Origin: Escherichia phage mEp234
DNA: 39,578 nt
Direction: 5' to 3' (one strand)
Sequence record: NC_019715.1
Numbering within the stretch: position 1 is the stretch's first letter; each line of letters starts with the position of its first letter. Shown here piece by piece: positions 2,008 through 27,299 of the stretch. The position numbers were made by a program, and so were the translations under genes. Below the pieces are notes generated by a model. That model was given only the letters and a program-made list of their open reading frames with translations. It ran no database searches and had not been told where the DNA came from.

Positions 2008-3281
2008 TGGAAGAACCTAAATACACGATTGACCTGCGAACCAATAACGGCTGGTGGGCAAGGCTGCAGTCCTGGTTTGTCGGCGGGCGTTTAGTCACCC
2101 CAAATCAGGGCTCACAGACGGGGCCTGTTTCGGCCCACGGACACCTGGGCGATTCATCCATTAACGATGAACGGATACTGCAAATTTCGACTGTGTGGCG
2201 CTGCGTGAGCCTGATTTCAACGCTCACGGCATGCTTACCGCTTGATGTCTTCGAAACAGACCAGAATGACAACCGTAAAAAAGTGGATTTGAGCAATCCA
2301 CTGGCGCGACTGCTGCGCTACTCACCGAATCAGTACATGACCGCCCAAGAATTCAGGGAGGCCATGACGATGCAGCTCTGTTTCTACGGTAACGCATATG
2401 CACTTGTGGACCGCAACAGCGCAGGTGACGTGATCAGCCTTCTCCCGCTTCAGTCTGCCAATATGGATGTGAAGCTCGTCGGAAAAAAAGTGGTTTATCG
2501 CTATCAACGCGACAGCGAATACGCCGACTTTTCGCAGAAAGAGATTTTTCACCTTAAAGGCTTCGGATTCACCGGGCTTGTAGGCCTGTCACCCATTGCT
2601 TTTGCCTGTAAATCGGCAGGTGTGGCAGTTGCGATGGAGGACCAGCAGCGAGATTTCTTTGCCAACGGCGCCAAGTCTCCGCAAATCCTCTCAACTGGCG
2701 AAAAAGTGCTAACTGAACAGCAGCGCTCCCAGGTCGAAGAGAACTTCAAAGAGATCGCCGGCGGCCCGGTAAAAAAACGCCTCTGGATTCTGGAAGCGGG
2801 TTTTTCTACATCGGCAATTGGCGTAACTCCGCAGGATGCCGAAATGATGGCGTCCCGAAAATTTCAGGTAAGTGAACTGGCGCGATTCTTTGGCGTACCG
2901 CCTCACCTTGTCGGCGACGTCGAGAAATCAACGAGCTGGGGATCGGGCATCGAGCAGCAGAATCTCGGCTTCCTGCAGTACACCCTGCAGCCCTATATCT
3001 CCAGGTGGGAAAACAGCATTCAGCGGTGGCTTATTCCTGCTAAGGATGTTGGCCGCATTCATGCTGAGCACAACCTCGACGGCCTGCTGAGGGGCGATTC
3101 GGCATCCCGCGCTGCCTTTATGAAGGCAATGGGAGAGGCAGGGCTACGCACCATCAACGAGATGCGACGAACGGACAACCTCCCGCCATTGCCGGGTGGC
3201 GATGTGGCAATGCGCCAGTCGCAATACGTGCCGATCACCGATTTAGGAACCAACAAAGAGCCCCGTAATAACGGGGCTTAA
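2007..3281 (+). CDS. portal protein (HK97 family)
   Basis: 424 aa from ATG 2007, which overlaps the TerL stop (TGATG); track ORF starts at GTG 2004. Position after TerL. Confidence 0.85.
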   Translation: MEEPKYTIDLRTNNGWWARLQSWFVGGRLVTPNQGSQTGPVSAHGHLGDSSINDERILQISTVWRCVSLISTLTACLPLDVFETDQNDNRKKVDLSNPLARLLRYSPNQYMTAQEFREAMTMQLCFYGNAYALVDRNSAGDVISLLPLQSANMDVKLVGKKVVYRYQRDSEYADFSQKEIFHLKGFGFTGLVGLSPIAFACKSAGVAVAMEDQQRDFFANGAKSPQILSTGEKVLTEQQRSQVEENFKEIAGGPVKKRLWILEAGFSTSAIGVTPQDAEMMASRKFQVSELARFFGVPPHLVGDVEKSTSWGSGIEQQNLGFLQYTLQPYISRWENSIQRWLIPAKDVGRIHAEHNLDGLLRGDSASRAAFMKAMGEAGLRTINEMRRTDNLPPLPGGDVAMRQSQYVPITDLGTNKEPRNNGA

Positions 3282-3298: not shown

Positions 3299-3976
3299 AT
3301 GCCTGAAATCGTAAAAACGCTGTCCTTCGACGAGACAGAAATCAAATTCACCGGTGACGGTAAACAGGGGATTTTTGAAGGCTACGCCTCTGTTTTTAAT
3401 AACACCGATTCCGATGGCGACATCATTCTGCCCGGGGCGTTTAAAAACGCGCTGGCGAACCAGACCCGAAAAGTGGCGATGTTTTTTAACCACAGGACGT
3501 GGGAACTGCCGGTTGGCAAATGGGACAGCCTGGCTGAGGACGAAAAAGGCCTGTATGTGCGCGGTCAACTTACCCCAGGACACAGCGGCGCCGCTGACCT
3601 AAAAGCGGCAATGCAGCACGGTACGGTTGAAGGTATGTCGGTTGGCTTTTCCGTTGCGAAAGACGATTACACCATCATTCCAACAGGCCGCATTTTTAAG
3701 AATATCCAGGCTCTGCGCGAAATCAGCGTCTGCACTTTCCCCGCCAACGAACAGGCTGGCATCGCAGCCATGAAAAGTGTCGATGGCATTGAAACGATTC
3801 GTGATGTGGAGAACTGGCTGAGGGATTCAGTCGGCCTCACCAAATCACAGGCAGTTGGGCTAATTGCCCGGTTTAAGTCAGCGATTCGGAGCGAGTCCGA
3901 GGGCGACGGAAACGAAGCACAAATAAACGCTCTGCTTCAGAGCATCAAATCTTTCCCTTCTAACTTAGGTAAATAA
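3299..3976 (+). CDS. prohead maturation protease (HK97 gp4-like)
   Basis: ORF 3287-3976; likely start ATG 3299 (MPEIVKT) 5 nt after a GGGGG run; between portal and capsid gene. Confidence 0.8.
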   Translation: MPEIVKTLSFDETEIKFTGDGKQGIFEGYASVFNNTDSDGDIILPGAFKNALANQTRKVAMFFNHRTWELPVGKWDSLAEDEKGLYVRGQLTPGHSGAADLKAAMQHGTVEGMSVGFSVAKDDYTIIPTGRIFKNIQALREISVCTFPANEQAGIAAMKSVDGIETIRDVENWLRDSVGLTKSQAVGLIARFKSAIRSESEGDGNEAQINALLQSIKSFPSNLGK

Positions 3977-8153: not shown

Positions 8154-8342
8154 ATGGAACCACTGGTAGTAGTGTTTGGAATATTCGGCTGGCTGATAAA
8201 TCTAATTGTGATTTTTTATTTATTACGGTTTAGCACAAGGGCAAATGAACAAGTTGAAGCCCTTAAAGAGATAAATAAAAAGCAAGATGCGCAAATAGAT
8301 TTATTAATACAAGTCGCTCACCAAAGAAAAGACAGTTTATAA
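8154..8342 (+). CDS. small single-pass membrane protein, HK97 gp15/YebO-like (candidate superinfection exclusion)
   Basis: 62 aa; strong SD AAGGAGG; N-terminal TM helix then RFSTRANEQVEALKEI; AT-rich; located between T and tape measure, the position of HK97 gp15. Confidence 0.55.
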   Translation: MEPLVVVFGIFGWLINLIVIFYLLRFSTRANEQVEALKEINKKQDAQIDLLIQVAHQRKDSL

Positions 8343-8372: not shown

Positions 8373-8384
8373 ATGGGTGAAAAT

Positions 8385-11300
8385 ATGGCTACGTTGCGCG
8401 AACTGATCATCAAAATATCTGCAAACTCTCAGTCATTCCAGTCTGAAATTTCTCGTGCTTCAAGAATGGGGAATGACTATTACCGGGTAATGCAGACTGG
8501 AGGACGCCAATCGGCCGCAGCTTCGCGTGAAACTCAGCGTGCCTTGGCTGAGGTAACTAGTCAAATAAACACCGCGAAGGCCTCAGCACTGGGAATGGCT
8601 GGTGCATTTGCTGGAGCATTTGCGACTGGTCATCTTATATCGCTGGCCGATGAATGGAGCTCTATTAATGCCAGGCTAAAGCAGGCTTCCCAGTCGTCAG
8701 ATGATTTCACGGAGTCCCAGCGGGCGCTGATGGATATTAGCCAGCGAACCGGAACCGCCTTCTCTGATAATGCGAGTCTTTTTGCGCGTTCAGCCGCTTC
8801 TATGCGTGAATATGGCTACAGTTCAGAAGAGGTTCTGAAGGTAACCGAGGCTATATCAACAGGGCTTAAGCTGTCAGGCGCAAGCGCGTCTGAAGCGAGT
8901 TCGGTAATCACGCAGTTCAGCCAGGCTCTGGCGCAGGGTGTTCTTCGAGGCGAGGAATTTAACTCCGTCAACGAAAACGGTGATCGAGTTATCCGTGCTC
9001 TTGCCGCAGGGATGGGTGTAGCTCGTAAAGATCTGAAGGCAATGGCCGATCAGGGGATGCTAACCGCAGATAAAGTTGTCCCGGCCCTGATAAGTCAACT
9101 TGGCACTATGCGTGGTGAATTTGAGGCAATGCCGCAGACCGTTTCTGCTGCCACGACGAAAGTCGAAAATGCTTTCATGGCATGGGTAGGTGGCGCTAAT
9201 GAAGCCACTGGTGCGACAAGTACTCTTGTTGCCGTATTGAATACGGTTTCTGACAATATAGACACTGTGGCTACGGCTGCCGGAGCTTTGGCTGCGATAG
9301 GTGGAGCTCGCTATCTTGGAGGGATGTTTGGCGATCTTGGGAACCAGACGGCGCAATTAATAGATGCCAGAAAGAACGAAATTGCGCTCGCAGCTGCAAG
9401 GGCTGAATCTGCTACCCAATCACAACGCAAGGCCGCCGCCGATGCTATTGCTGCTGAGCGAGCTTACCAGCTTGCTCAGTCAGAACTTGTGCTGGCAAAG
9501 AATACTAATGCTGAGGCTACTGCCACTCAAAATGCCATATCCAAGCGCCGGGCAATGATTACAGCAAATGCGGCACTGGTACAGTCAAACAGAGCCGTTG
9601 CAGCCTCTCAGCAGGCACTTAACTCTGCAACATCAGTGCTGGGGCTTGTAAAAACTGGCGCTACGGGTCTTTTGTCGTTAGTTGGTGGTTTGCCAGGAAT
9701 TTTAATGTTGGGTGCTGGGGCGTGGTACACGATGTATCAACGCCAAGAACAAGCCAGGGAATCTGCAATCAAATATGCGGACACAATAGAGCAGGTACGA
9801 GATAATCTGAAATCAATGTCTCAGACGCAGATATCCGCCAACCTTGGACAGGCGAATATTTCACTGGATGCTCAGAATAGTGCGATTGAACAGCAGAAGC
9901 AGAAAGTTGCTGAATTATCCAATCAACTTTATAACGCAAAATTAGCAGCCAATTCTGCTTCAGAGGGGACATGGCTGTATAACGATGCGGTTGAGAAAGC
10001 CGCAGACTTTGCTTCAGAACTTGCGGTTGAAGAAGGCCGACTTGAGCAAATGCTCAATAAAAGAAAGCAAACACAACAGTTAATAAACGACATAACTGAT
10101 CAGGCTATAAATAAAACAGTAGAAATGGCTGGCGCCGTAAGTTCTCTTACAGAGATGTATGACCGGCTGAACAAGGTTTCCAGACAGTCTACAGCAGTGT
10201 CCCCACCAAAATATGCAGGACCTGTACTTCCTGCGCTTGATAATAAGCAACAACAAGCTATTGAGAAAGCACAGCGACAGCTTGAGTTATCTGGCCTTCA
10301 GGGTTTGGATAAGGCTCGAAAGCAGGCAGAATTCGATGCATCTGATCTGAACCTTCCAGCTGGTTGGCGTGAGAAATATGTCAGCATGGAAGTTGAGTCT
10401 GCCAGGCAATTACAAGCAATTCGTAACTCAAGCCGCCATAAGGGTGGAAAATCCGAGGCGGAAAAAACAGCTGATACCTATGACAAGCTGATCAAGCAGC
10501 AAAAAGAGCAGATCGCTCTGCAAGGGCAGAATACCGAGCTGGCAAAGGTTAAATATCAGGTAAGCCAGGGTGAGCTTTCTACGCTAAGTCAGGCCCAGAA
10601 AGCCGAAGTTATGCGTAATGCTGCTCTCATCGATCAGGTTAAATTGCGTGAGCAACTGCGAAATTACGAAGCCAACCTTGCTGACAGTAACGCCAGCGCC
10701 CGCGCAGCCAATGAAGCGCAACTGCTGGGATACGGGCAGGGAACCAGGTTCCGTGAAAGACTTCAGGAGCAGTTCAATCTGCGTAAGGAGTTTGAGCAGA
10801 AGAATACCGATCTTCTCCGCCAGCGTCAGGCTGGTGAAATCGACGAGACGTTCTATCAGCAGGGGCTGGCACTTAATAAGCGCTACCTCGAAGAGCGCCT
10901 GCGCGACCAGGAGGGATATTACGCAGCTTCTGATGCGCAGCGTGACGACTGGATGACGGGACTGTCTGAGGGTTATGCGAACTGGGTGGACGAAGCGACA
11001 GATTACTCCTCCATGGCCGCTGACGGCATGAAGCAGGCCATGGGTGGCGCGGTCACCACGATCACCGACATGCTCAATGGCAACGTTGACAGCTGGAAGG
11101 ACTGGGGCGTGAGCGTACTGAAGATCATCCAGAACGTTCTGGTGAACATGGCTGTTGCTAACGGCGTCAGTTCAATTGGTTCTCTCTTCAGCTTTGGCGC
11201 ATCTTCCGCCGCTGCCGCCAGTAGCGGTACTGCAATTCAGAACGCTGGCGCGAACTTCACCTTTAACGCGAAGGGTAATGTTTACGACTCTCCGTCCCTG

Positions 11301-11651
11301 AGCGCATACAGCAATGGCGTGTTTCAGACCCCTCAGCTTTTTGCTTTTGCCAAAGGAGCGGGTGTGTTTGCAGAGGCTGGACCTGAAGCCATTATGCCGC
11401 TTACCCGTGCTGCTGATGGTTCGCTTGGCGTTCGGGCTGTTGGCACTGGTGGTGGTCAGGCTGTATCTTCGGCTCCACAGGTTTACATCACCATCGATGG
11501 CAACGGAAATACTTCCACGCAGACTTCACCCGGCCTTGAGCAATTTGGTGCTGATGTCGGTAAATATATTGATCAGCGATATAAGCAGAACATCATGCGA
11601 GATATTCGCCCTGGCGGTGACATCTGGAACGCAATGAAAGGAACCCGATAA
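8385..11651 (+). CDS. tail tape measure protein
   Basis: About 1090 aa, alanine/glutamine-rich with long coiled-coil stretches; follows G/T. Track ORF begins at ATG 8373, which abuts the U-tract; ATG 8385 is the more likely start. Confidence 0.9.
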   Translation: MATLRELIIKISANSQSFQSEISRASRMGNDYYRVMQTGGRQSAAASRETQRALAEVTSQINTAKASALGMAGAFAGAFATGHLISLADEWSSINARLKQASQSSDDFTESQRALMDISQRTGTAFSDNASLFARSAASMREYGYSSEEVLKVTEAISTGLKLSGASASEASSVITQFSQALAQGVLRGEEFNSVNENGDRVIRALAAGMGVARKDLKAMADQGMLTADKVVPALISQLGTMRGEFEAMPQTVSAATTKVENAFMAWVGGANEATGATSTLVAVLNTVSDNIDTVATAAGALAAIGGARYLGGMFGDLGNQTAQLIDARKNEIALAAARAESATQSQRKAAADAIAAERAYQLAQSELVLAKNTNAEATATQNAISKRRAMITANAALVQSNRAVAASQQALNSATSVLGLVKTGATGLLSLVGGLPGILMLGAGAWYTMYQRQEQARESAIKYADTIEQVRDNLKSMSQTQISANLGQANISLDAQNSAIEQQKQKVAELSNQLYNAKLAANSASEGTWLYNDAVEKAADFASELAVEEGRLEQMLNKRKQTQQLINDITDQAINKTVEMAGAVSSLTEMYDRLNKVSRQSTAVSPPKYAGPVLPALDNKQQQAIEKAQRQLELSGLQGLDKARKQAEFDASDLNLPAGWREKYVSMEVESARQLQAIRNSSRHKGGKSEAEKTADTYDKLIKQQKEQIALQGQNTELAKVKYQVSQGELSTLSQAQKAEVMRNAALIDQVKLREQLRNYEANLADSNASARAANEAQLLGYGQGTRFRERLQEQFNLRKEFEQKNTDLLRQRQAGEIDETFYQQGLALNKRYLEERLRDQEGYYAASDAQRDDWMTGLSEGYANWVDEATDYSSMAADGMKQAMGGAVTTITDMLNGNVDSWKDWGVSVLKIIQNVLVNMAVANGVSSIGSLFSFGASSAAAASSGTAIQNAGANFTFNAKGNVYDSPSLSAYSNGVFQTPQLFAFAKGAGVFAEAGPEAIMPLTRAADGSLGVRAVGTGGGQAVSSAPQVYITIDGNGNTSTQTSPGLEQFGADVGKYIDQRYKQNIMRDIRPGGDIWNAMKGTR

Positions 11652-14441: not shown

Positions 14442-17400
14442 ATGGCTACAGATAAAGTGTTAAAAGGCCGCAAGGGCGGCAGCTCAAGTTCCCGAACCCC
14501 TACCGAACAGCCTGATGATCTGCAATCTGTAGCGAAGGCAAAGATCCTCGTTGCGCTTGGGGAAGGGGAGTTTGCTGGACAGCTCACCGGGAAGGATATC
14601 TACCTGGACGGAACAGCGCTGGAGAATGCTGACGGCTCCCAAAACTTCAGCGGGGTAACGTGGGAGTTTCGCGCGGGAACGCAGGCGCAAAAATATATTC
14701 AGGGTATTCCCGGTACCGAAAACGAGATCAGCGTAGGAACTGAGGTATCAAGTGCCACAGCCTGGACGCGCACGTTTACCAATACGCAGCTTTCAGCAGT
14801 TCGCCTGCGTCTTAAATGGCCCTCGCTTTTCAAACAGGAAGACGACGGCGATCTGGTGGGTTACTCGGTCAATTATGCGATTGACCTGCAGACGGACGGC
14901 GGCACATGGCAGACGGTACTCAATACCAGCGTGACCGGCAAAACGACGTCTGGTTATGAGCGCAGCCACCGTATCGATTTACCGCAGGCTGGCAGCACAT
15001 GGACAATACGTCTGCGTAAGATTACCTCTGACGCCAACAGCGCGAAGATCGGCGACACGATGATGCTGCAGAGCTTCACCGAGGTGATTGATGCCAAACT
15101 GCGCTACCCGAACACCGCGCTGCTCTACGTCGAATTCGACTCAAGCCAGTTCAACGGCTCTATTCCTCAAATTTCATGCGAACCGCGCGGCCGCGTTATC
15201 CGCGTTCCAGATACCTACGACCCTGAAACCCGCACTTATAGCGGTACATGGACCGGTGCGTTTAAGTGGGCATGGACGGATAACCCTGCGTGGATTTTTT
15301 ACGACCTGGTTGTTTCTGACCGGTTTGGCCTCGGGCACCGTTTGACCGCTGCGAATATTGATAAATGGACTCTTTATCAGGTTGCTCAGTATTGTGATCA
15401 GATGGTACCAGACGGCAAAGGGGGCAACGGTACAGAACCACGCTATACCTGCAACGTGTACATTCAGGACCGGAACGACGCCTACACAGTCCTGCGTGAT
15501 TTTGCCGCTATCTTCCGTGGCATGACCTACTGGGGCGGGGATCAGATTGTGGCCCTGGCTGACATGCCGCGCGATGTTGATTACAGCTATACGCGCGCTA
15601 ACGTTGTTGGCGGTCGCTTCACCTATTCGAGCAGCACCACGAAAAGCCGCTACACCACAGCGCTGGTTTCATGGTCAGATCCGGGTAACGCTTATGCCGA
15701 CGCAATGGAGCCGGTATTTGAGCAGGCGCTGGTGGCGCGATACGGCTTCAATCAGCTGGAAATGACAGCCATCGGCTGCACCAGGCAGTCAGAGGCGAAC
15801 CGAAAGGGGCGCTGGGGTATTCTCACCAACAACAAGGATCGCGTTGTTTCGTTTGATGTCGGGCTGGACGGAAACATTCCGCAGCCGGGCTACATCATCG
15901 CCGTGGCAGACGAGCTGCTTTCCGGAAAGGTTATGGGCGGCCGCATCAGCGCCGTTAACGGTCGCGTTATCAAACTTGACCGCGTAGCTGATGCAGCACC
16001 AGGTGATCGCCTTATTCTCAACCTGCCTTCCGGAGCGTCGCAGAGCAGGACCATTCAGGCCGTGAACGGGGAATCAGTCACAGTCACCACGGCATACAGT
16101 GAGACGCCACAGGCCGAAGCTGTTTGGGTTGTTGAATCTGACGAGCTTTACGCGCAGCAGTATCGTGTTGTCAGCGTCTCCGACAACGGTGATGGCACTT
16201 TCTCAATCACCGGCGCATGGCACGACCCGGATAAATATGCCCGCATCGATACCGGAGCCATCATTGACCAGCGGCCGGTGAGCGTGATCCCGCCTGGTAA
16301 CCAGTCGCCGCCTGCGAACATCGTGATCAGCTCGTTTTCCGTGGTGCAGCAAAATATCAGCGTCGAAACGATGCGCGTGAGCTGGGACCAGGCGCAGAAC
16401 GCTATCGCCTATGAAGCGCAATGGCGCCGCAACGACGGGAACTGGGTTAACGTGCCGCGCACCTCCACCACGTCATTCGACGTCCCGGGGATTTATGCCG
16501 GGCGCTACCTGGTGCGGGTGCGCGCAATCAATGCCGCAGAAATTTCATCCGGATGGGGCTATTCAGAAGAGAAAACGCTGACGGGTAAAGTGGGCAATCC
16601 ACCGAAGCCGGTTGGCTTCATCGCTTCTGAAAATGTGGTTTTCGGCATCGAGCTGAACTGGGGATTCCCGGCGAATACCGACGACACGCTGAAGACGGAA
16701 ATTCAGTACAGCCTGACCGGAACCGAGGACGATGCGATGCTGCTGGCCGATGTGCCTTATCCGCAGCGCAAATATCAGCAGATGGGCCTCAAGGCTGGGC
16801 AGATTTTCTGGTACCGCGCTCAGCTGGTGGACCGCAGCGGCAACGAATCAGGGTACACAGAATGGGTGCGAGGACAGGCCAGCATCGATGTTTCCGACAT
16901 CACAGATGTGATCCTGGAGGACATGAAAGGCTCCGATACGTTCAAAGACCTGATCGAGAACGCTGTGGACAGCAATGAAAAAATTGCTGGCATGGCTGAC
17001 GAAATCAAAAACCATGCCGACGAACTCGAGCAGCAGGCGAAAGACATCCAGGAAAACGCTGACGGGCTGGCCCAGGCCGAAGTGAAGATCGACGAGATTT
17101 CTGTGTCGATGGATGGCATGACGGGAGGCGTGAAGAACTCGGCAATCGCGATTATCCAGAATGGGCTGGCGCAGGTTGTCAGTCGTCGTTCCCAGACCGC
17201 GACAAACGCAGGGAACAGCGCCAGCATTGACCGTATCGACACGACCATAGCCGACACCAGCTCGGCGGTTGCTCGCGCGCTGGTGACGCTGGATGCTTCA
17301 GCTGGTGGGAATATCTCCAACTCTACCGATCTCACTGAAACTCTGGCCGATTTCACGCAGGCATCGGCGACAAAAATTAACACCCTGAATGTTAAATCTG

Positions 17401-17897
17401 GCGAAAACAGTGCCGCGATAAATGTCAACGCACAGGCTATCGCAGATGTAAACGGTAACCTAAGTGCGATGTACAACATCAAGGTTGGTGTCTCCAGCAA
17501 TGGACAGTATTACGCCGCGGGGATGGGTATCGGCGTGGAGAATACGCCATCCGGCATGCAGTCGCAGGTTATCTTCCTGGCTGATCGCTTCGCCGTCACC
17601 ACGGCGGCCGGAAATAGCGTGGCTTTGCCGTTCGTGATCCAGAACGGGCAGACATTCATCCGGGCCAGTTTCATCCAGGACGGCACTATCAGCAACGCAA
17701 AGATTGGTAATTTTATCCAGTCGAACAATTATGTTGCTGGTTCTGCTGGCTGGAAGCTTGATAAAGGGGGGACGTTTGAGAACTACGGTTCGACTGCTGG
17801 TGAGGGAGCCATGAAACTGACAAATCAGACGATCAGCGTCAAAGATGGCAGTAATGTTCTTAGGGTGCAGGTTGGCCGATTAACGGGAGTATTCTGA
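14442..17897 (+). CDS. host specificity protein J (central tail fibre / tip attachment)
   Basis: 1151 aa; lambda gpJ-like size and position after I. Confidence 0.9.
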   Translation: MATDKVLKGRKGGSSSSRTPTEQPDDLQSVAKAKILVALGEGEFAGQLTGKDIYLDGTALENADGSQNFSGVTWEFRAGTQAQKYIQGIPGTENEISVGTEVSSATAWTRTFTNTQLSAVRLRLKWPSLFKQEDDGDLVGYSVNYAIDLQTDGGTWQTVLNTSVTGKTTSGYERSHRIDLPQAGSTWTIRLRKITSDANSAKIGDTMMLQSFTEVIDAKLRYPNTALLYVEFDSSQFNGSIPQISCEPRGRVIRVPDTYDPETRTYSGTWTGAFKWAWTDNPAWIFYDLVVSDRFGLGHRLTAANIDKWTLYQVAQYCDQMVPDGKGGNGTEPRYTCNVYIQDRNDAYTVLRDFAAIFRGMTYWGGDQIVALADMPRDVDYSYTRANVVGGRFTYSSSTTKSRYTTALVSWSDPGNAYADAMEPVFEQALVARYGFNQLEMTAIGCTRQSEANRKGRWGILTNNKDRVVSFDVGLDGNIPQPGYIIAVADELLSGKVMGGRISAVNGRVIKLDRVADAAPGDRLILNLPSGASQSRTIQAVNGESVTVTTAYSETPQAEAVWVVESDELYAQQYRVVSVSDNGDGTFSITGAWHDPDKYARIDTGAIIDQRPVSVIPPGNQSPPANIVISSFSVVQQNISVETMRVSWDQAQNAIAYEAQWRRNDGNWVNVPRTSTTSFDVPGIYAGRYLVRVRAINAAEISSGWGYSEEKTLTGKVGNPPKPVGFIASENVVFGIELNWGFPANTDDTLKTEIQYSLTGTEDDAMLLADVPYPQRKYQQMGLKAGQIFWYRAQLVDRSGNESGYTEWVRGQASIDVSDITDVILEDMKGSDTFKDLIENAVDSNEKIAGMADEIKNHADELEQQAKDIQENADGLAQAEVKIDEISVSMDGMTGGVKNSAIAIIQNGLAQVVSRRSQTATNAGNSASIDRIDTTIADTSSAVARALVTLDASAGGNISNSTDLTETLADFTQASATKINTLNVKSGENSAAINVNAQAIADVNGNLSAMYNIKVGVSSNGQYYAAGMGIGVENTPSGMQSQVIFLADRFAVTTAAGNSVALPFVIQNGQTFIRASFIQDGTISNAKIGNFIQSNNYVAGSAGWKLDKGGTFENYGSTAGEGAMKLTNQTISVKDGSNVLRVQVGRLTGVF

Positions 17898-17898
17898 A

Positions 17899-18201
17899 AT
17901 GGCTTATGGAATACAGACCTGGGATGCTTCAGGAAAACCCAACAACTATGGCATCAAACCCGTTTCCGTCGTTGGGCGAATACAGCTGGCTGCCGGGCAA
18001 ACCTCCGGCAGCTGGTCTTTTACGGTGCCCTCAGGAATGAAAGTTGGTTTTGTTCTTTCACTTGATGAAGGAGGTAACAGCGTAGGGCGGCGCATTGTCG
18101 CGTCAGGGAGCACAATAACCGTAAGCGCTGCATCTTCTGTAGGTCTGGGTAATTATCCGGCCTCAAAGTGTGAAGTGGTCGTTTTCATGGAGAAAGCATA
18201 A
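17899..18201 (+). CDS. hypothetical protein downstream of J
   Basis: 100 aa, ATG 2 nt after the J stop; N-terminal motif GIQTWDASGK recurs in the next protein. Confidence 0.5.
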   Translation: MAYGIQTWDASGKPNNYGIKPVSVVGRIQLAAGQTSGSWSFTVPSGMKVGFVLSLDEGGNSVGRRIVASGSTITVSAASSVGLGNYPASKCEVVVFMEKA

Positions 18202-18839
18202 TGGCCGAATTTGGCGCGATGATATTAATGGACAACGGGAACCCATTTGTAACGCCCCAGTCAACGCCTTTTTGTCTTTACGGCAAGTACACTTTCAACT
18301 CCTCTGCTAATGGCAGTTCGCAGCAGGTTGCTCAGAATATTGCATTAAATGCTGACTACCCTGTGATGGTATTTATCAGGACCACAAATACCGCCCAGCC
18401 CACGCCAGTAATATCTTACCGGAACGGCGGAAATATATATGTCGCGGGGGTTAATCCCTATAACCAGAGCTTCACGTTAACCGCATATATTTTTGCCATA
18501 TTTCCCCAGACGTTACCGAAATGGGGGATGGCCATCTGGGATTCGAGCGGGAAGCTGGTACTCACTAATGAGTCCCGCGTGCTGTCAGACTTGCAGACAA
18601 TCGGAACGCCTGGAGCAAACGGCGGGATTAACATTGACCAGACGCTTGATGGTTCATGGGCAGTGGCTCCATCAAGGCTGGGGCAAGTGAACAGAAACGA
18701 CGCTTACTCATCTTGTAGGTATTCAGGCACAAGTACAAGAATAAACGCCGGTACAGCCGCAAATACACCTGGCGGTGCTGGAGGGGTGATAAATAATGGA
18801 ATTATCCTGACAGCAATTAAAACAGACGCCTATGATTGA
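18201..18839 (+). CDS. hypothetical protein (possible tail-tip accessory)
   Basis: 212 aa, start overlaps the upstream stop (TAATG); contains AIWDSSGK, related to the N-terminus of the preceding protein; Gly/Asn/Thr-rich. Confidence 0.5.
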   Translation: MAEFGAMILMDNGNPFVTPQSTPFCLYGKYTFNSSANGSSQQVAQNIALNADYPVMVFIRTTNTAQPTPVISYRNGGNIYVAGVNPYNQSFTLTAYIFAIFPQTLPKWGMAIWDSSGKLVLTNESRVLSDLQTIGTPGANGGINIDQTLDGSWAVAPSRLGQVNRNDAYSSCRYSGTSTRINAGTAANTPGGAGGVINNGIILTAIKTDAYD

Positions 18840-18946
18840 TTGTTTTGAGCGATCAATAACAAATAATTTATCTATCTAATCAATTATATCCATCGATTAT
18901 GTATTGGTATCTTCGAAGCTACTGAATACCTCTGGATACTATCAAA

Positions 18947-19180
18947 ATGAAAAGGCTAATTATCTGCATAGCGGGCGCTTTAATGCTGTCTGGTTGCGCT
19001 GGTGTACTTGAGAAACAGAAACCGATTTGCAGCGGCACGGCATATATGGGTGGCCATGAGAATACCGTTATGATTTACGCCGTTCGAAAGCAAAACAACC
19101 AGACGCAATACCGGGCCGGATATCCCTTTAACTGGCGCTGGGTAAGTGCGAACACATTCACAAGCACGACATGTAAATAA
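18947..19180 (+). CDS. small lipoprotein (Cor-like superinfection-exclusion candidate)
   Basis: 77 aa; signal peptide with lipobox LSGC; AT-rich upstream region; sits between J and the side tail fibre, where lambdoid phages carry cor/lom-type genes. Confidence 0.5.
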   Translation: MKRLIICIAGALMLSGCAGVLEKQKPICSGTAYMGGHENTVMIYAVRKQNNQTQYRAGYPFNWRWVSANTFTSTTCK

Positions 19181-19197
19181 CTCATGATTTTCAATGC

Positions 19198-19224
19198 AAA
19201 CCTCGCCTCGGCGGGGTTTTTTAT
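19198..19224 (+). terminator. Rho-independent terminator after lipoprotein gene
   Basis: CCTCGC-CTCG-GCGGGG (one G:U) followed by TTTTTTATT; SD GGAG and ATG 19239 follow. Confidence 0.5.
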
Positions 19225-19238
19225 TGCCTGGAGAAAAT

Positions 19239-20507
19239 ATGCTTTATAACACTGGAACCATCGCCATTAACGGAAACAGCGCCACCGGCACGGGCACGAA
19301 CTGGACGGCAACCGCCAGCCAGGTTCGCGCTGGCCAGACGATTATCGTGATGTCTAACCCGGTGCAGCTGTTCCAGATTTCATCCGTGAACAGCGCCACG
19401 TCAATGACGGTTACGCCAGCTGCATCACCGGCGCTGAGCGGCCAGAAGTACGGCATTCTGGTATCAGACAATATCTCGGTTGATGGGCTGGCGCTGGCCA
19501 TGTCGCAGCTTATCAAGGAGTATGACGAGAATATTGGTGCGTGGGAGACGTTCGCCACAACCTCAGCCAACCAGAACATTACCGTTACGATCAATGGCAC
19601 CAGTTTATCAATCCCGGCTCTTGGGAAATTACTGCAGAAGGGGAGCAACGGAGCTTTGCCGGTTAATCAAGGTGGTACCGGCGCAACGAATGCCGCAGAC
19701 GCTCGCACAAACCTTGGTCTGGGAAGTGCGGCGACAAAAAACACAGGAGCGTCCTTCGGCGATGTAATGACAGTGGGGGCTTTTGGGCTGGGAAGCGTTG
19801 CGGACGGGTACTACTACGGTGCGCCAACGGGGTTTTACGGCAGCCCTCCGGATAACCCAAGCAGTGGCATTGGGGTAGCAACAATAAAGAGCGTTGTGGG
19901 TGGATATTCAACAGATTTATCCATGACCCTTGCATCCACAGCCCGCCTTTTTCTGAGAAATATCGGACCTGGTGGCGGCGGTCTATGGGCAGAATTTTAC
20001 AGCAACAGAAATACTACAACAGCTGCAGACGGAACCCTGAAAGTGGCATCCCCCATTGTTAAAATACTTCACGATGGTCGGCATGAAAACAATGATGAAT
20101 CTTATGGCTGCACAGTTACCAGGCTCGGGGTTGGTGAATATCTCATTGAAGGATGTACGGGGCTCAATTCTGATGCAGCCTGGGGTGGTATCGATGGCGG
20201 CTTTGACATCCCCAAAGATCGAAACAGGCAACCACTGATATGGCTGGACTATGAGATCAACGCTGACGGTTCGGTGCTGGTAAAAACCTATCATCGTACC
20301 CATCCTGACGCTCCAGTTTTTGCACGTAACGAGCGGGACGGATACGCCAGTGGTGACCCGATTGATATTCCTGCCGACCAGTTCGTGTCAGTACGTGTAG
20401 AGATGCCACGCGACAGTATCTGGCACCAGAAACAGAAGGAGATGCGGGAAGTGATGGAGGACGCTGAGCGTGGGCGCCAGCAAAATCAGCAGAATACCCA
20501 GTCGTAA
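19239..20507 (+). CDS. side tail fibre protein
   Basis: 422 aa from ATG 19239 (SD GGAG); N-terminus MLYNTGTIAINGNSATGTGTNW and PVNQGGTGATNAADARTNLGL are typical tail-fibre motifs. Track ORF 19194 starts inside the terminator. Confidence 0.75.
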   Translation: MLYNTGTIAINGNSATGTGTNWTATASQVRAGQTIIVMSNPVQLFQISSVNSATSMTVTPAASPALSGQKYGILVSDNISVDGLALAMSQLIKEYDENIGAWETFATTSANQNITVTINGTSLSIPALGKLLQKGSNGALPVNQGGTGATNAADARTNLGLGSAATKNTGASFGDVMTVGAFGLGSVADGYYYGAPTGFYGSPPDNPSSGIGVATIKSVVGGYSTDLSMTLASTARLFLRNIGPGGGGLWAEFYSNRNTTTAADGTLKVASPIVKILHDGRHENNDESYGCTVTRLGVGEYLIEGCTGLNSDAAWGGIDGGFDIPKDRNRQPLIWLDYEINADGSVLVKTYHRTHPDAPVFARNERDGYASGDPIDIPADQFVSVRVEMPRDSIWHQKQKEMREVMEDAERGRQQNQQNTQS

Positions 20508-21020
20508 AAATTATAACTGCCGCAACCATGCCGTATGCAAGAGCATGATTGCGGCCGACTAGCGAACGTTCGATAGTGCGAGTATTGAATGATTTCAAGC
20601 CGTTACCGATTTTACTATGTTTTCAGTAGAACGCTTAGACAAAACTGAGGCGCACAAAGCTTTGCACTGGATTGCAAGACTTTGTTCTATTCGATAGTTT
20701 AAGGTCGCTCACTCTACCTTTTCATCAAGCCAGTCCGCCCACCACAGCATCATTTCTCTGCGCTTAATGTAGCGGATGCCTCACTATCACATAGTGATGG
20801 TTCATTACTGCTTTGTAGAATGGATAGAGAACTGAGGATAAAAAGATATCCCAAAACCCCAAAATCTCATCTTTAGGATTTGCAGAAAGGGAGGCGTGAA
20901 CAGATACCTGCGCATGAAGACGGAACTAGTCCAGATGTGATATTTGTGGTGATCACATACATCATCAACGATGCTCGTTATGGTGAGTTTGATGACTACC
21001 CGCTGAAGTGAAAATAGTGT

Positions 21021-21316
21021 TGTGTACCAAATTGCGTACCAAACTAAAATCACAAATCATGAAACCCTTGTTCATGGCGGTTCTCAGGGGTATTGCGCGT
21101 AATCGTGAAAGAGGAAGGTAGGTTGTTTATCTGTGTCTGTCATTGTCTAGCATTGTCCACTGTAGTTAATTAACTGTCTGTTATAACTCGAAAAACAACC
21201 ATTTTTTCACCTGAGTATGTCTACTAACGTCAAATATAGTTGTTTACTGTGCGCTGTTGTCCATGTGATATTGTGTACCAGATGTGTACCAAACCATTAT
21301 TTCTGAGCGTACCAAA
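21021..21316. other. candidate attP region with integrase arm-type direct repeats
   Basis: Five same-orientation copies of GTACCA(A/G)A at 21024-21031, 21036-21043, 21275-21282, 21286-21293 and 21309-21316, flanking a ~230-bp AT-rich interval immediately upstream of int. Confidence 0.45.
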
Positions 21317-26867: not shown

Positions 26868-26873
26868 TGGAGA

Positions 26874-27299
26874 TTATTTTCTAGATGATGTTGGGGACCA
26901 AGGTAACGTTATAGTATCTAACACTGTGTTTTTGAACATATTTTCAAAAACTGTTTTTGTACATACATATACATAATTTTCAAAAAACCAAGCATTTTCA
27001 TTATAAAAATCCTCAGTTACTTCTTCATCGAGGTCACACTCAAATGTTAGTGTCAAGGTAGCCTCTGCCTTGAACAATACATCCTCACCATCATCAAAAT
27101 CTTTTTTATCGCGAGGGAAACCAGTTATCGATGGCTTAACTTCAATAAAGAGCCAATTTCCATCTTCATCTTTTTGAGGAACAACGTGATGCTCAGAAAA
27201 TTTTAAGCTATATTTTCCGCCTTCAGAATTATCACTGTCGTCGATAAAAAGGGAAGAACCCTCGAGATCAAATCCCTTAAAGCGAATTTTATCAAGCAT
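26874..27299 (-). CDS. acidic protein of unknown function, translationally coupled to hicB
   Basis: 141 aa from ATG 27297-27299, overlapping the hicB stop (TGATG); AT-rich coding sequence; no recognisable motif; the track ORF extends to an upstream TTG. Confidence 0.5.
   Translation of the reverse strand: MLDKIRFKGFDLEGSSLFIDDSDNSEGGKYSLKFSEHHVVPQKDEDGNWLFIEVKPSITGFPRDKKDFDDGEDVLFKAEATLTLTFECDLDEEVTEDFYNENAWFFENYVYVCTKTVFENMFKNTVLDTITLPWSPTSSRK

Follow-up and report, generated by a model that had tools for sequence, protein, structure and literature searches.

Cor protects lysogens of HK022, N15 and phi80 from FhuA-dependent phages via inactivation of FhuA, which also lowers ferrichrome uptake, according to PMC3594210 (citing Uc-Mass et al. 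2004 for the exclusion) and PMC11436027. Together with PMC9311878, these sources report a block of FhuA-dependent phages and of FhuA transport for the Cor proteins of HK022, N15, phi80 and mEp167. A 'cor cassette' has been described for T1, HK022, N15, ES18 and phi80, all of which are FhuA-dependent (PMC13164509, citing Wietzorrek et al. 2006). The locus directly 3′ of gpJ tracks receptor specificity and likely encodes a receptor-binding protein, accessory proteins and a cognate exclusion protein (BASEL study, PMC8594841; bioRxiv 10.64898/2026.04.02.716166); in the literature it has also been proposed to encode an FhuA-specific receptor-binding protein plus accessory proteins.

The analogue that is understood best is Llp, the lytic conversion lipoprotein of phage T5, which sits in the inner leaflet of the outer membrane. 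It binds FhuA from the periplasm, moves its plug and makes the extracellular loops EL7 and EL8 fold inward, thereby removing the phage binding site; the authors state that Cor 'likely functions in a similar way' (PMC9586334). Rtp45 of phage Rtp is, like Cor, a small exclusion protein encoded beside the receptor-binding locus 3′ of gpJ, and blocks the receptor of its own phage (PMC12685063). It acts on LptDE and binds the periplasmic face of LptD (bioRxiv 10.64898/2026.04.02.716166). Its target, LptD, is thus a different one, and by the published account it works through steric clashes and not through allostery as described for Llp. The genes lom of lambda and gp15 of HK97 resemble cor in being small prophage-expressed accessory genes among the late genes, each with its own terminator, but they encode unrelated proteins with different mechanisms. 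HK97 gp15 also confers superinfection exclusion and blocks genome entry without affecting the receptor (PMC3594210).

The locus considered here belongs to Escherichia phage mEp234 (NC_019715.1) and lies in a window of 39,578 nucleotides, by which we mean the whole stretch of DNA that was analysed. Over positions 1-21099 this window matches Escherichia phage mEp234 with 100% identity, and its identity to HK446, HK106, HK544 and HK633 is 97-99%. The 701 bases around the gene of interest are 99.3-100% identical to 25 phage records, and the matching records, including those of mEp234 and HK446, name the ORF 'Cor' or 'Cor superinfection exclusion protein' and mark the hairpin behind it as a rho-independent terminator. 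Table 1 gives an overview of the features of the locus and of the inverted cor genes found in three compared phages.

Table 1. Features of the cor locus of mEp234 (positions in the window) and inverted cor genes of compared phages (positions in the compared stretches)
Feature	Position	Strand	Details
J, central tail fibre / host-specificity gene	14442..17897	+	1151 aa; annotated J / central tail fiber in mEp234 and HK446
100-aa gene, first of the module upstream of cor	17899..18201	+	PHROG 557, E 2.4e-36
212-aa gene, second of the module	18201..18839	+	PHROG 425, E 9.7e-75
Candidate sigma-70 promoter for cor, unproven	18807-18836	+	CTGACA, 18-nt spacer, TATGAT
AT-rich intergenic leader before cor	18840-18946	+	107 bp, 29.0% GC
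cor coding sequence, stop included	18947-19180	+	77 aa; from the ORF list with translations
Cor signal peptide (predicted)	18947-18994	+	aa 1-16
Cor lipobox LSGC	18986-18997	+	L14-S15-G16-C17; preceded by MKRLIICIAGALM, followed by AG
Mature Cor lipoprotein (predicted)	from 18995	+	61 aa, from Cys17
Intrinsic terminator (predicted)	19198-19222	+	hairpin AAACCTCGC-CTCG-GCGGGGTTT, stem 19198-19206 / 19211-19219, loop CTCG, then T-run TTTTTTATT
Side tail fibre gene	19239..20507	+	422 aa; Pfam PF25670, E 1.9e-58; PHROG 1591; ATG as in mEp234
Inverted cor, ES18	3336-3578		
Inverted cor, Eco_BIFF	3501-3728		
Inverted cor, SECphi4	2633-2905		

The translation of the ORF is MKRLIICIAGALMLSGCAGVLEKQKPICSGTAYMGGHENTVMIYAVRKQNNQTQYRAGYPFNWRWVSANTFTSTTCK, and it is 100% identical to Cor of HK022 (AF069308), 79% identical to Cor of phi80 and 64.5% identical to Cor of N15. 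It matches the NCBIfam equivalog NF047972 (lamb_exclu_cor, "phage exclusion lipoprotein Cor") with 138.8 bits against a cutoff of 31 bits, covering profile positions 1-76 of 78, and PHROG 1119 with an E-value of 2.4e-37. Pfam contains no family for Cor, nor for the 100-aa and 212-aa proteins encoded upstream. The exact sequence is deposited as AAF30376.1 and under further accessions, named 'phage exclusion lipoprotein Cor', and occurs in 151 contigs. Since the protein is identical to HK022 Cor and homologues are present in 242 phage records, the 77-aa ORF is real beyond chance. An earlier note on this DNA had described a 77-aa lipoprotein with the lipobox LSGC, about 100 bp of AT-rich sequence before it and a terminator behind it, and all three are found at the locus as described. 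The same note had called it a Cor-like lipoprotein moron that excludes superinfecting phages by inactivating the receptor, an activity towards FhuA which PMC3594210 assigns to Cor. The sequence comparisons make it close to certain that we are dealing with cor from a lambdoid phage of the HK022 type, and that the product is Cor itself, not merely a Cor-like protein. The exclusion function of this protein is likewise close to certain.

The N-terminus of Cor, up to and including the lipobox Cys, reads MKRLIICIAGALMLSGC and continues with AGV of the mature part. Its predicted signal peptide is composed of an n-region with K2 and R3, a hydrophobic core (residues 4-13) and the lipobox, and an Ala occupies the +2 position. 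By the sorting rule of the Lol system, an Ala at mature +2 directs a lipoprotein to the outer membrane; the inner-membrane retention signal at +2 is absent in Cor. Thus Cor carries a standard bacterial lipoprotein signal and is predicted to be lipidated. An alignment of 27 Cor homologues, the most distant of them at 56% identity, shows no variation at Cys17 and Cys76 and hardly any at Cys28. The core motif YRAGYPFNW is conserved, and residues Y55, G58, P60, F61 and W65 do not vary among the 27 proteins. The ribosome-binding site of cor is weak, consisting of a GGA 11-13 nt before the ATG.

Some database entries deviate from this description. In the mEp234 record PV340539.1 (38688-38885, corresponding to 18983-19180 of the window) Cor is called as a protein of 65 aa starting from the internal Met13 (MLSGCAG...). 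This start is implausible: the protein would lose its signal peptide and could then be neither exported nor lipidated. The plausible start is that of the 77-aa form, which the records of HK446 and HK022 use. In KY979108.1 (Escherichia phage ECP1, 31074-31304) a Cor homologue of 92% identity is labelled 'lipase chaperone', which is probably a mis-annotation.

How Cor might act on FhuA was approached through its predicted fold. An AlphaFold2 model built from the alignment of 27 sequences reached a pLDDT of 82 overall and of about 90 over the mature part, and shows a small five-stranded beta-barrel. Among PDB structures, FhuA-bound Llp gives the best structural match. In a Foldseek search with the model Llp ranked 42nd (E 0.48), behind generic Tudor/SH3-like barrels, a result that alone is not decisive. 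The predicted fold of Cor is a small beta-barrel that can be superposed on Llp. Furthermore, the precursors of both proteins comprise 77 aa, and the Cys residues are equivalently spaced (C16, C26 and C73 in Llp; C17, C28 and C76 in Cor). A similarity of the predicted HK022 Cor structure to that of Llp has also been described (bioRxiv 10.64898/2026.03.26.714494). By analogy, we infer that Cor binds FhuA as Llp does, and we consider an Llp-like mechanism to be the most likely one for Cor, with a clear preponderance of probability in its favour.

Cor and Llp nevertheless differ in several respects. Outside the signal peptide, Llp (PDB 8A60 chain B, 7QJF) has no detectable sequence similarity to Cor: BLASTP gave no alignment of the two proteins, hhalign aligned only residues 1-33, i.e. 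the signal peptide and the first Cys (probability 81%), and an HMM search of the PDB sequences with Cor returned no Llp match. Llp is made early by a virulent phage from a gene that is divergent from pb5, whereas cor is carried by a prophage and runs in the same direction as the late operon. Only for Llp has direct binding to FhuA been solved structurally.

[quoted passage not shown] Interactions of Cor with these outer-membrane proteins are attributed to Arguijo-Hernandez et al. 2018 in PMC9311878, and a preprint of 2026 calls the mechanism of Cor exclusion not yet elucidated (bioRxiv 10.64898/2026.03.26.714494); the missing sequence similarity to Llp also speaks for it. Against it stand the structural match to FhuA-bound Llp with the same size and Cys pattern, as well as an AF3 model (ipTM 0.84) that places a T1-like Cor at the periplasmic face of FhuA and the specific co-occurrence of cor genes with FhuA-dependent phages (both PMC13164509). 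We therefore regard the action via several outer-membrane proteins as unlikely and prefer the direct, Llp-like one.

Cor of mEp234 is a member of the family formed by the Cor proteins of HK022, phi80, N15, mEp167 and T1 and differs from them in nothing of substance; length, lipobox, Cys pair, motif, position before the side tail fibre gene and terminator are shared. The neighbourhood of the gene is conserved as well. Two ORFs intervene between J and the leader of cor, and the 100-aa gene is found at the same position in N15 (gp22), phi80 (gp22), HK225, ES18 (gp30), T1-like phages and a Dhillonvirus, while homologues of the 212-aa protein are present in 348 phage records. The succession of J, two small genes (for about 100 aa and about 212-225 aa) and cor recurs in N15, phi80, HK225, Erwinia phage 49, ES18, Eco_BIFF and SECphi4. 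Judged by this conserved gene order, cor is the last gene of a conserved, FhuA-associated three-gene module 3′ of J. By analogy to pb5 and llp of T5, the logic of such a module would be the pairing of a receptor-binding gene with a gene that blocks the same receptor.

In about 111 Klebsiella phage records the homologue of the 212-aa protein matches only over the first 163 residues (about 34% identity). In the example that was inspected, Klebsiella phage MassiveIgloo (2187-3160 of the compared stretch), cor is not adjacent to this homologue. Such a distribution would fit a protein whose N-terminal part docks to the tail tip and whose C-terminal part carries the receptor specificity. Eight records labelled as Campylobacter jejuni phages (e.g. 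MG065679.1, Campylobacter phage A13a) contain cor and the 212-aa gene at T1-like identity. As this is odd for Campylobacter, it suggests that these records are T1-like coliphage sequences under a wrong host.

The predicted terminator behind cor was examined by comparison. Its hairpin is kept across mEp234, HK225, phi80 and N15. One base pair differs by a compensatory change (CG to UA), there is one further change from UG to CG, and the T-run with the following ATTGCC is invariant in these four phages. The records of HK446, HK225, phi80 and N15 place a rho-independent terminator at this site 3′ of cor. Terminator-like sites are not above chance in the scanned stretch, with 3 found versus 1.8 expected. 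As far as comparison can show, the terminator after cor is real.

Downstream of the terminator, the side tail fibre gene is preceded by a ribosome-binding site GGAG at 19230-19233. The HK446 record places the start of this gene at a TTG matching position 19224, inside the T-run of the terminator. A better start is the ATG at 19239, which has GGAG ahead of it and is given in the mEp234 record. PV340539.1, an mEp234 record in prophage order, ends at 21099, which suggests an attachment site at 21099/21100. This record also annotates a 43-aa 'UmuD' fragment at 20880-21011, and in N15 a complete umuD-like gene follows the tail fibre gene.

The leader upstream of cor is far more AT-rich than the window as a whole (29.0% versus 49.6% GC). 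Only 0.4% of all 107-bp segments are equally AT-rich, and they are confined to three places in the window. The second of these islands (GC ≤29% over 8196-8312) lies within a 62-aa ORF (8154-8342) that directly precedes a 1092-aa gene of tape-measure size (8373-11651); this ORF may represent a further accessory gene of small size. The third island, which is the most AT-rich one (26870-27060, with a minimum of 21% GC near 26904), lies in the early/regulatory region where ORFs of opposite strands meet. In HK225 and phi80 the cor leader is conserved to about 80%.

Sigma-70 consensus matches between 17800 and 19600 number 1, versus 2.5 expected by chance, and this single match, the candidate promoter of Table 1, falls in the 3′-terminal part of the 212-aa gene, shortly before the leader. 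Weaker matches are found at the same position in HK225 (TTAACC-18-TATGAT) and N15 (TTGACG-18-TACGAT). Their conservation proves little, because the underlying sequence encodes a conserved protein end. Inside the leader, the best match of a lenient scan reached 8/12 (TTGTTT, 16-nt spacer, AATAAT) at a position that is not conserved, and it was rejected as a promoter. We found no published mapping of the cor prophage promoter.

Other kinds of signals were sought in and around the leader. A Fur box, if real, would couple Cor to the iron-regulated FhuA; the best candidate (13/19 at 18788-18806) is one of nine equals in the window and is conserved in neither HK225 nor phi80, so that it was attributed to chance. 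A regulatory RNA or riboswitch was likewise rejected for the leader, as no Rfam family came near its gathering score and the leader folds no better than shuffled sequences (z = +1.0). Sub-threshold Rfam matches overlap or abut the terminator hairpin, except for one unrelated snoRNA match. No tRNA was found in the leader, and its inverted repeats are only short AT-rich ones of 9-10 nt without evident meaning. One might think of an unconventional or regulated prophage promoter of HK022-type cor, for example 18807-18836 with the 107-nt leader, which would match Cor to FhuA via the iron status or via H-NS-type silencing, but we attach little probability to it.

The comparison of genes is the stronger argument for an autonomous cor than the promoter matches. 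ES18 (a temperate Salmonella phage), the T1-like Tunavirus Eco_BIFF and the Dhillonvirus SECphi4 carry cor in the same slot but on the other strand, and it must have its own promoter in these phages, since it is inverted there. In this orientation cor converges on the gene of the 212-aa type, and in the lytic phages Eco_BIFF and SECphi4 the two genes are only about 20 bp apart. In the Klebsiella Webervirus MassiveIgloo, J, the 100-aa gene and a 220-aa gene are present, no cor is annotated and the next gene follows after 28 bp. We found no relatives with the same HK022-type flanks that have no cor. The inversion in ES18, the T1-like phage and the Dhillonvirus and the absence from the Webervirus argue for cor as a separate transcription unit.

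These data also bear on the possibility that cor of mEp234 is not autonomous but a gene of the late operon, co-transcribed with J and the tail fibre gene, with the AT-rich stretch as a mere spacer. In mEp234 cor is indeed co-oriented with the late genes, promoter matches are not above chance and none lies in the leader, and the leader RNA has no special structure. Nevertheless, this arrangement is very unlikely. The phenotype of lysogenic conversion requires expression with the late genes off (PMC3594210; PMC11436027), and therefore cor must have its own transcription in the prophage; the inverted genes and the conserved terminator directly 3′ of cor point in the same direction. The cassette that the earlier note had proposed stands in part. 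Its terminator is conserved, and it lies where the note placed it, behind the J block and ahead of the tail fibre gene. However, the gene neither adjoins J directly nor forms a lone cassette, as it closes the module of three genes, and a promoter function of its AT-rich leader is not evident from the sequence; the single candidate promoter lies upstream of the leader and does not exceed chance. The description of cor as a self-contained cassette thus applies partly.

That the protein is a small lipoprotein with another primary role, for example in the virion, in tail assembly or as an aid to lysis, and excludes phages only incidentally, as its place among tail genes and next to two upstream genes without experimentally proven function might suggest, is extremely improbable given the match to a curated exclusion-lipoprotein equivalog, homologues with published exclusion phenotypes, a predicted fold that is that of the T5 exclusion protein, and the dispensability of cor in relatives, seen in its absence from a Webervirus.

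Together, the identification as cor and the mechanism proposed here for the exclusion via FhuA form the best explanation of the locus, which as a whole we hold to be highly probable. The 77-aa precursor would be exported, and its mature part would form the small beta-barrel, probably clamped by a predicted disulfide between Cys28 and Cys76. Cor would bind the periplasmic side of FhuA, a TonB-dependent transporter, and lock it in a state that HK022-type phages, phi80, N15, T1 and T5 cannot use. A lysogen or an infected cell would in this way be protected from superinfection, progeny would not be wasted on cell debris, and the cost would be a lower uptake of ferrichrome. In the prophage, cor would be transcribed alone from a weak promoter, presumably located at or just upstream of the AT-rich leader, and the transcript would end at the terminator ahead of the tail fibre gene. 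In lytic growth the late transcription, being antiterminated, would be expected to read through this terminator.

The finding carries little weight as a discovery, since the cor gene, its product, its phenotype and its neighbourhood have all been published and identical genomes already annotate cor. For the phage itself it means that mEp234 is predicted to be an FhuA-dependent, cor-positive lambdoid phage, the lysogens of which should resist T1, phi80, T5 and HK022-type phages.
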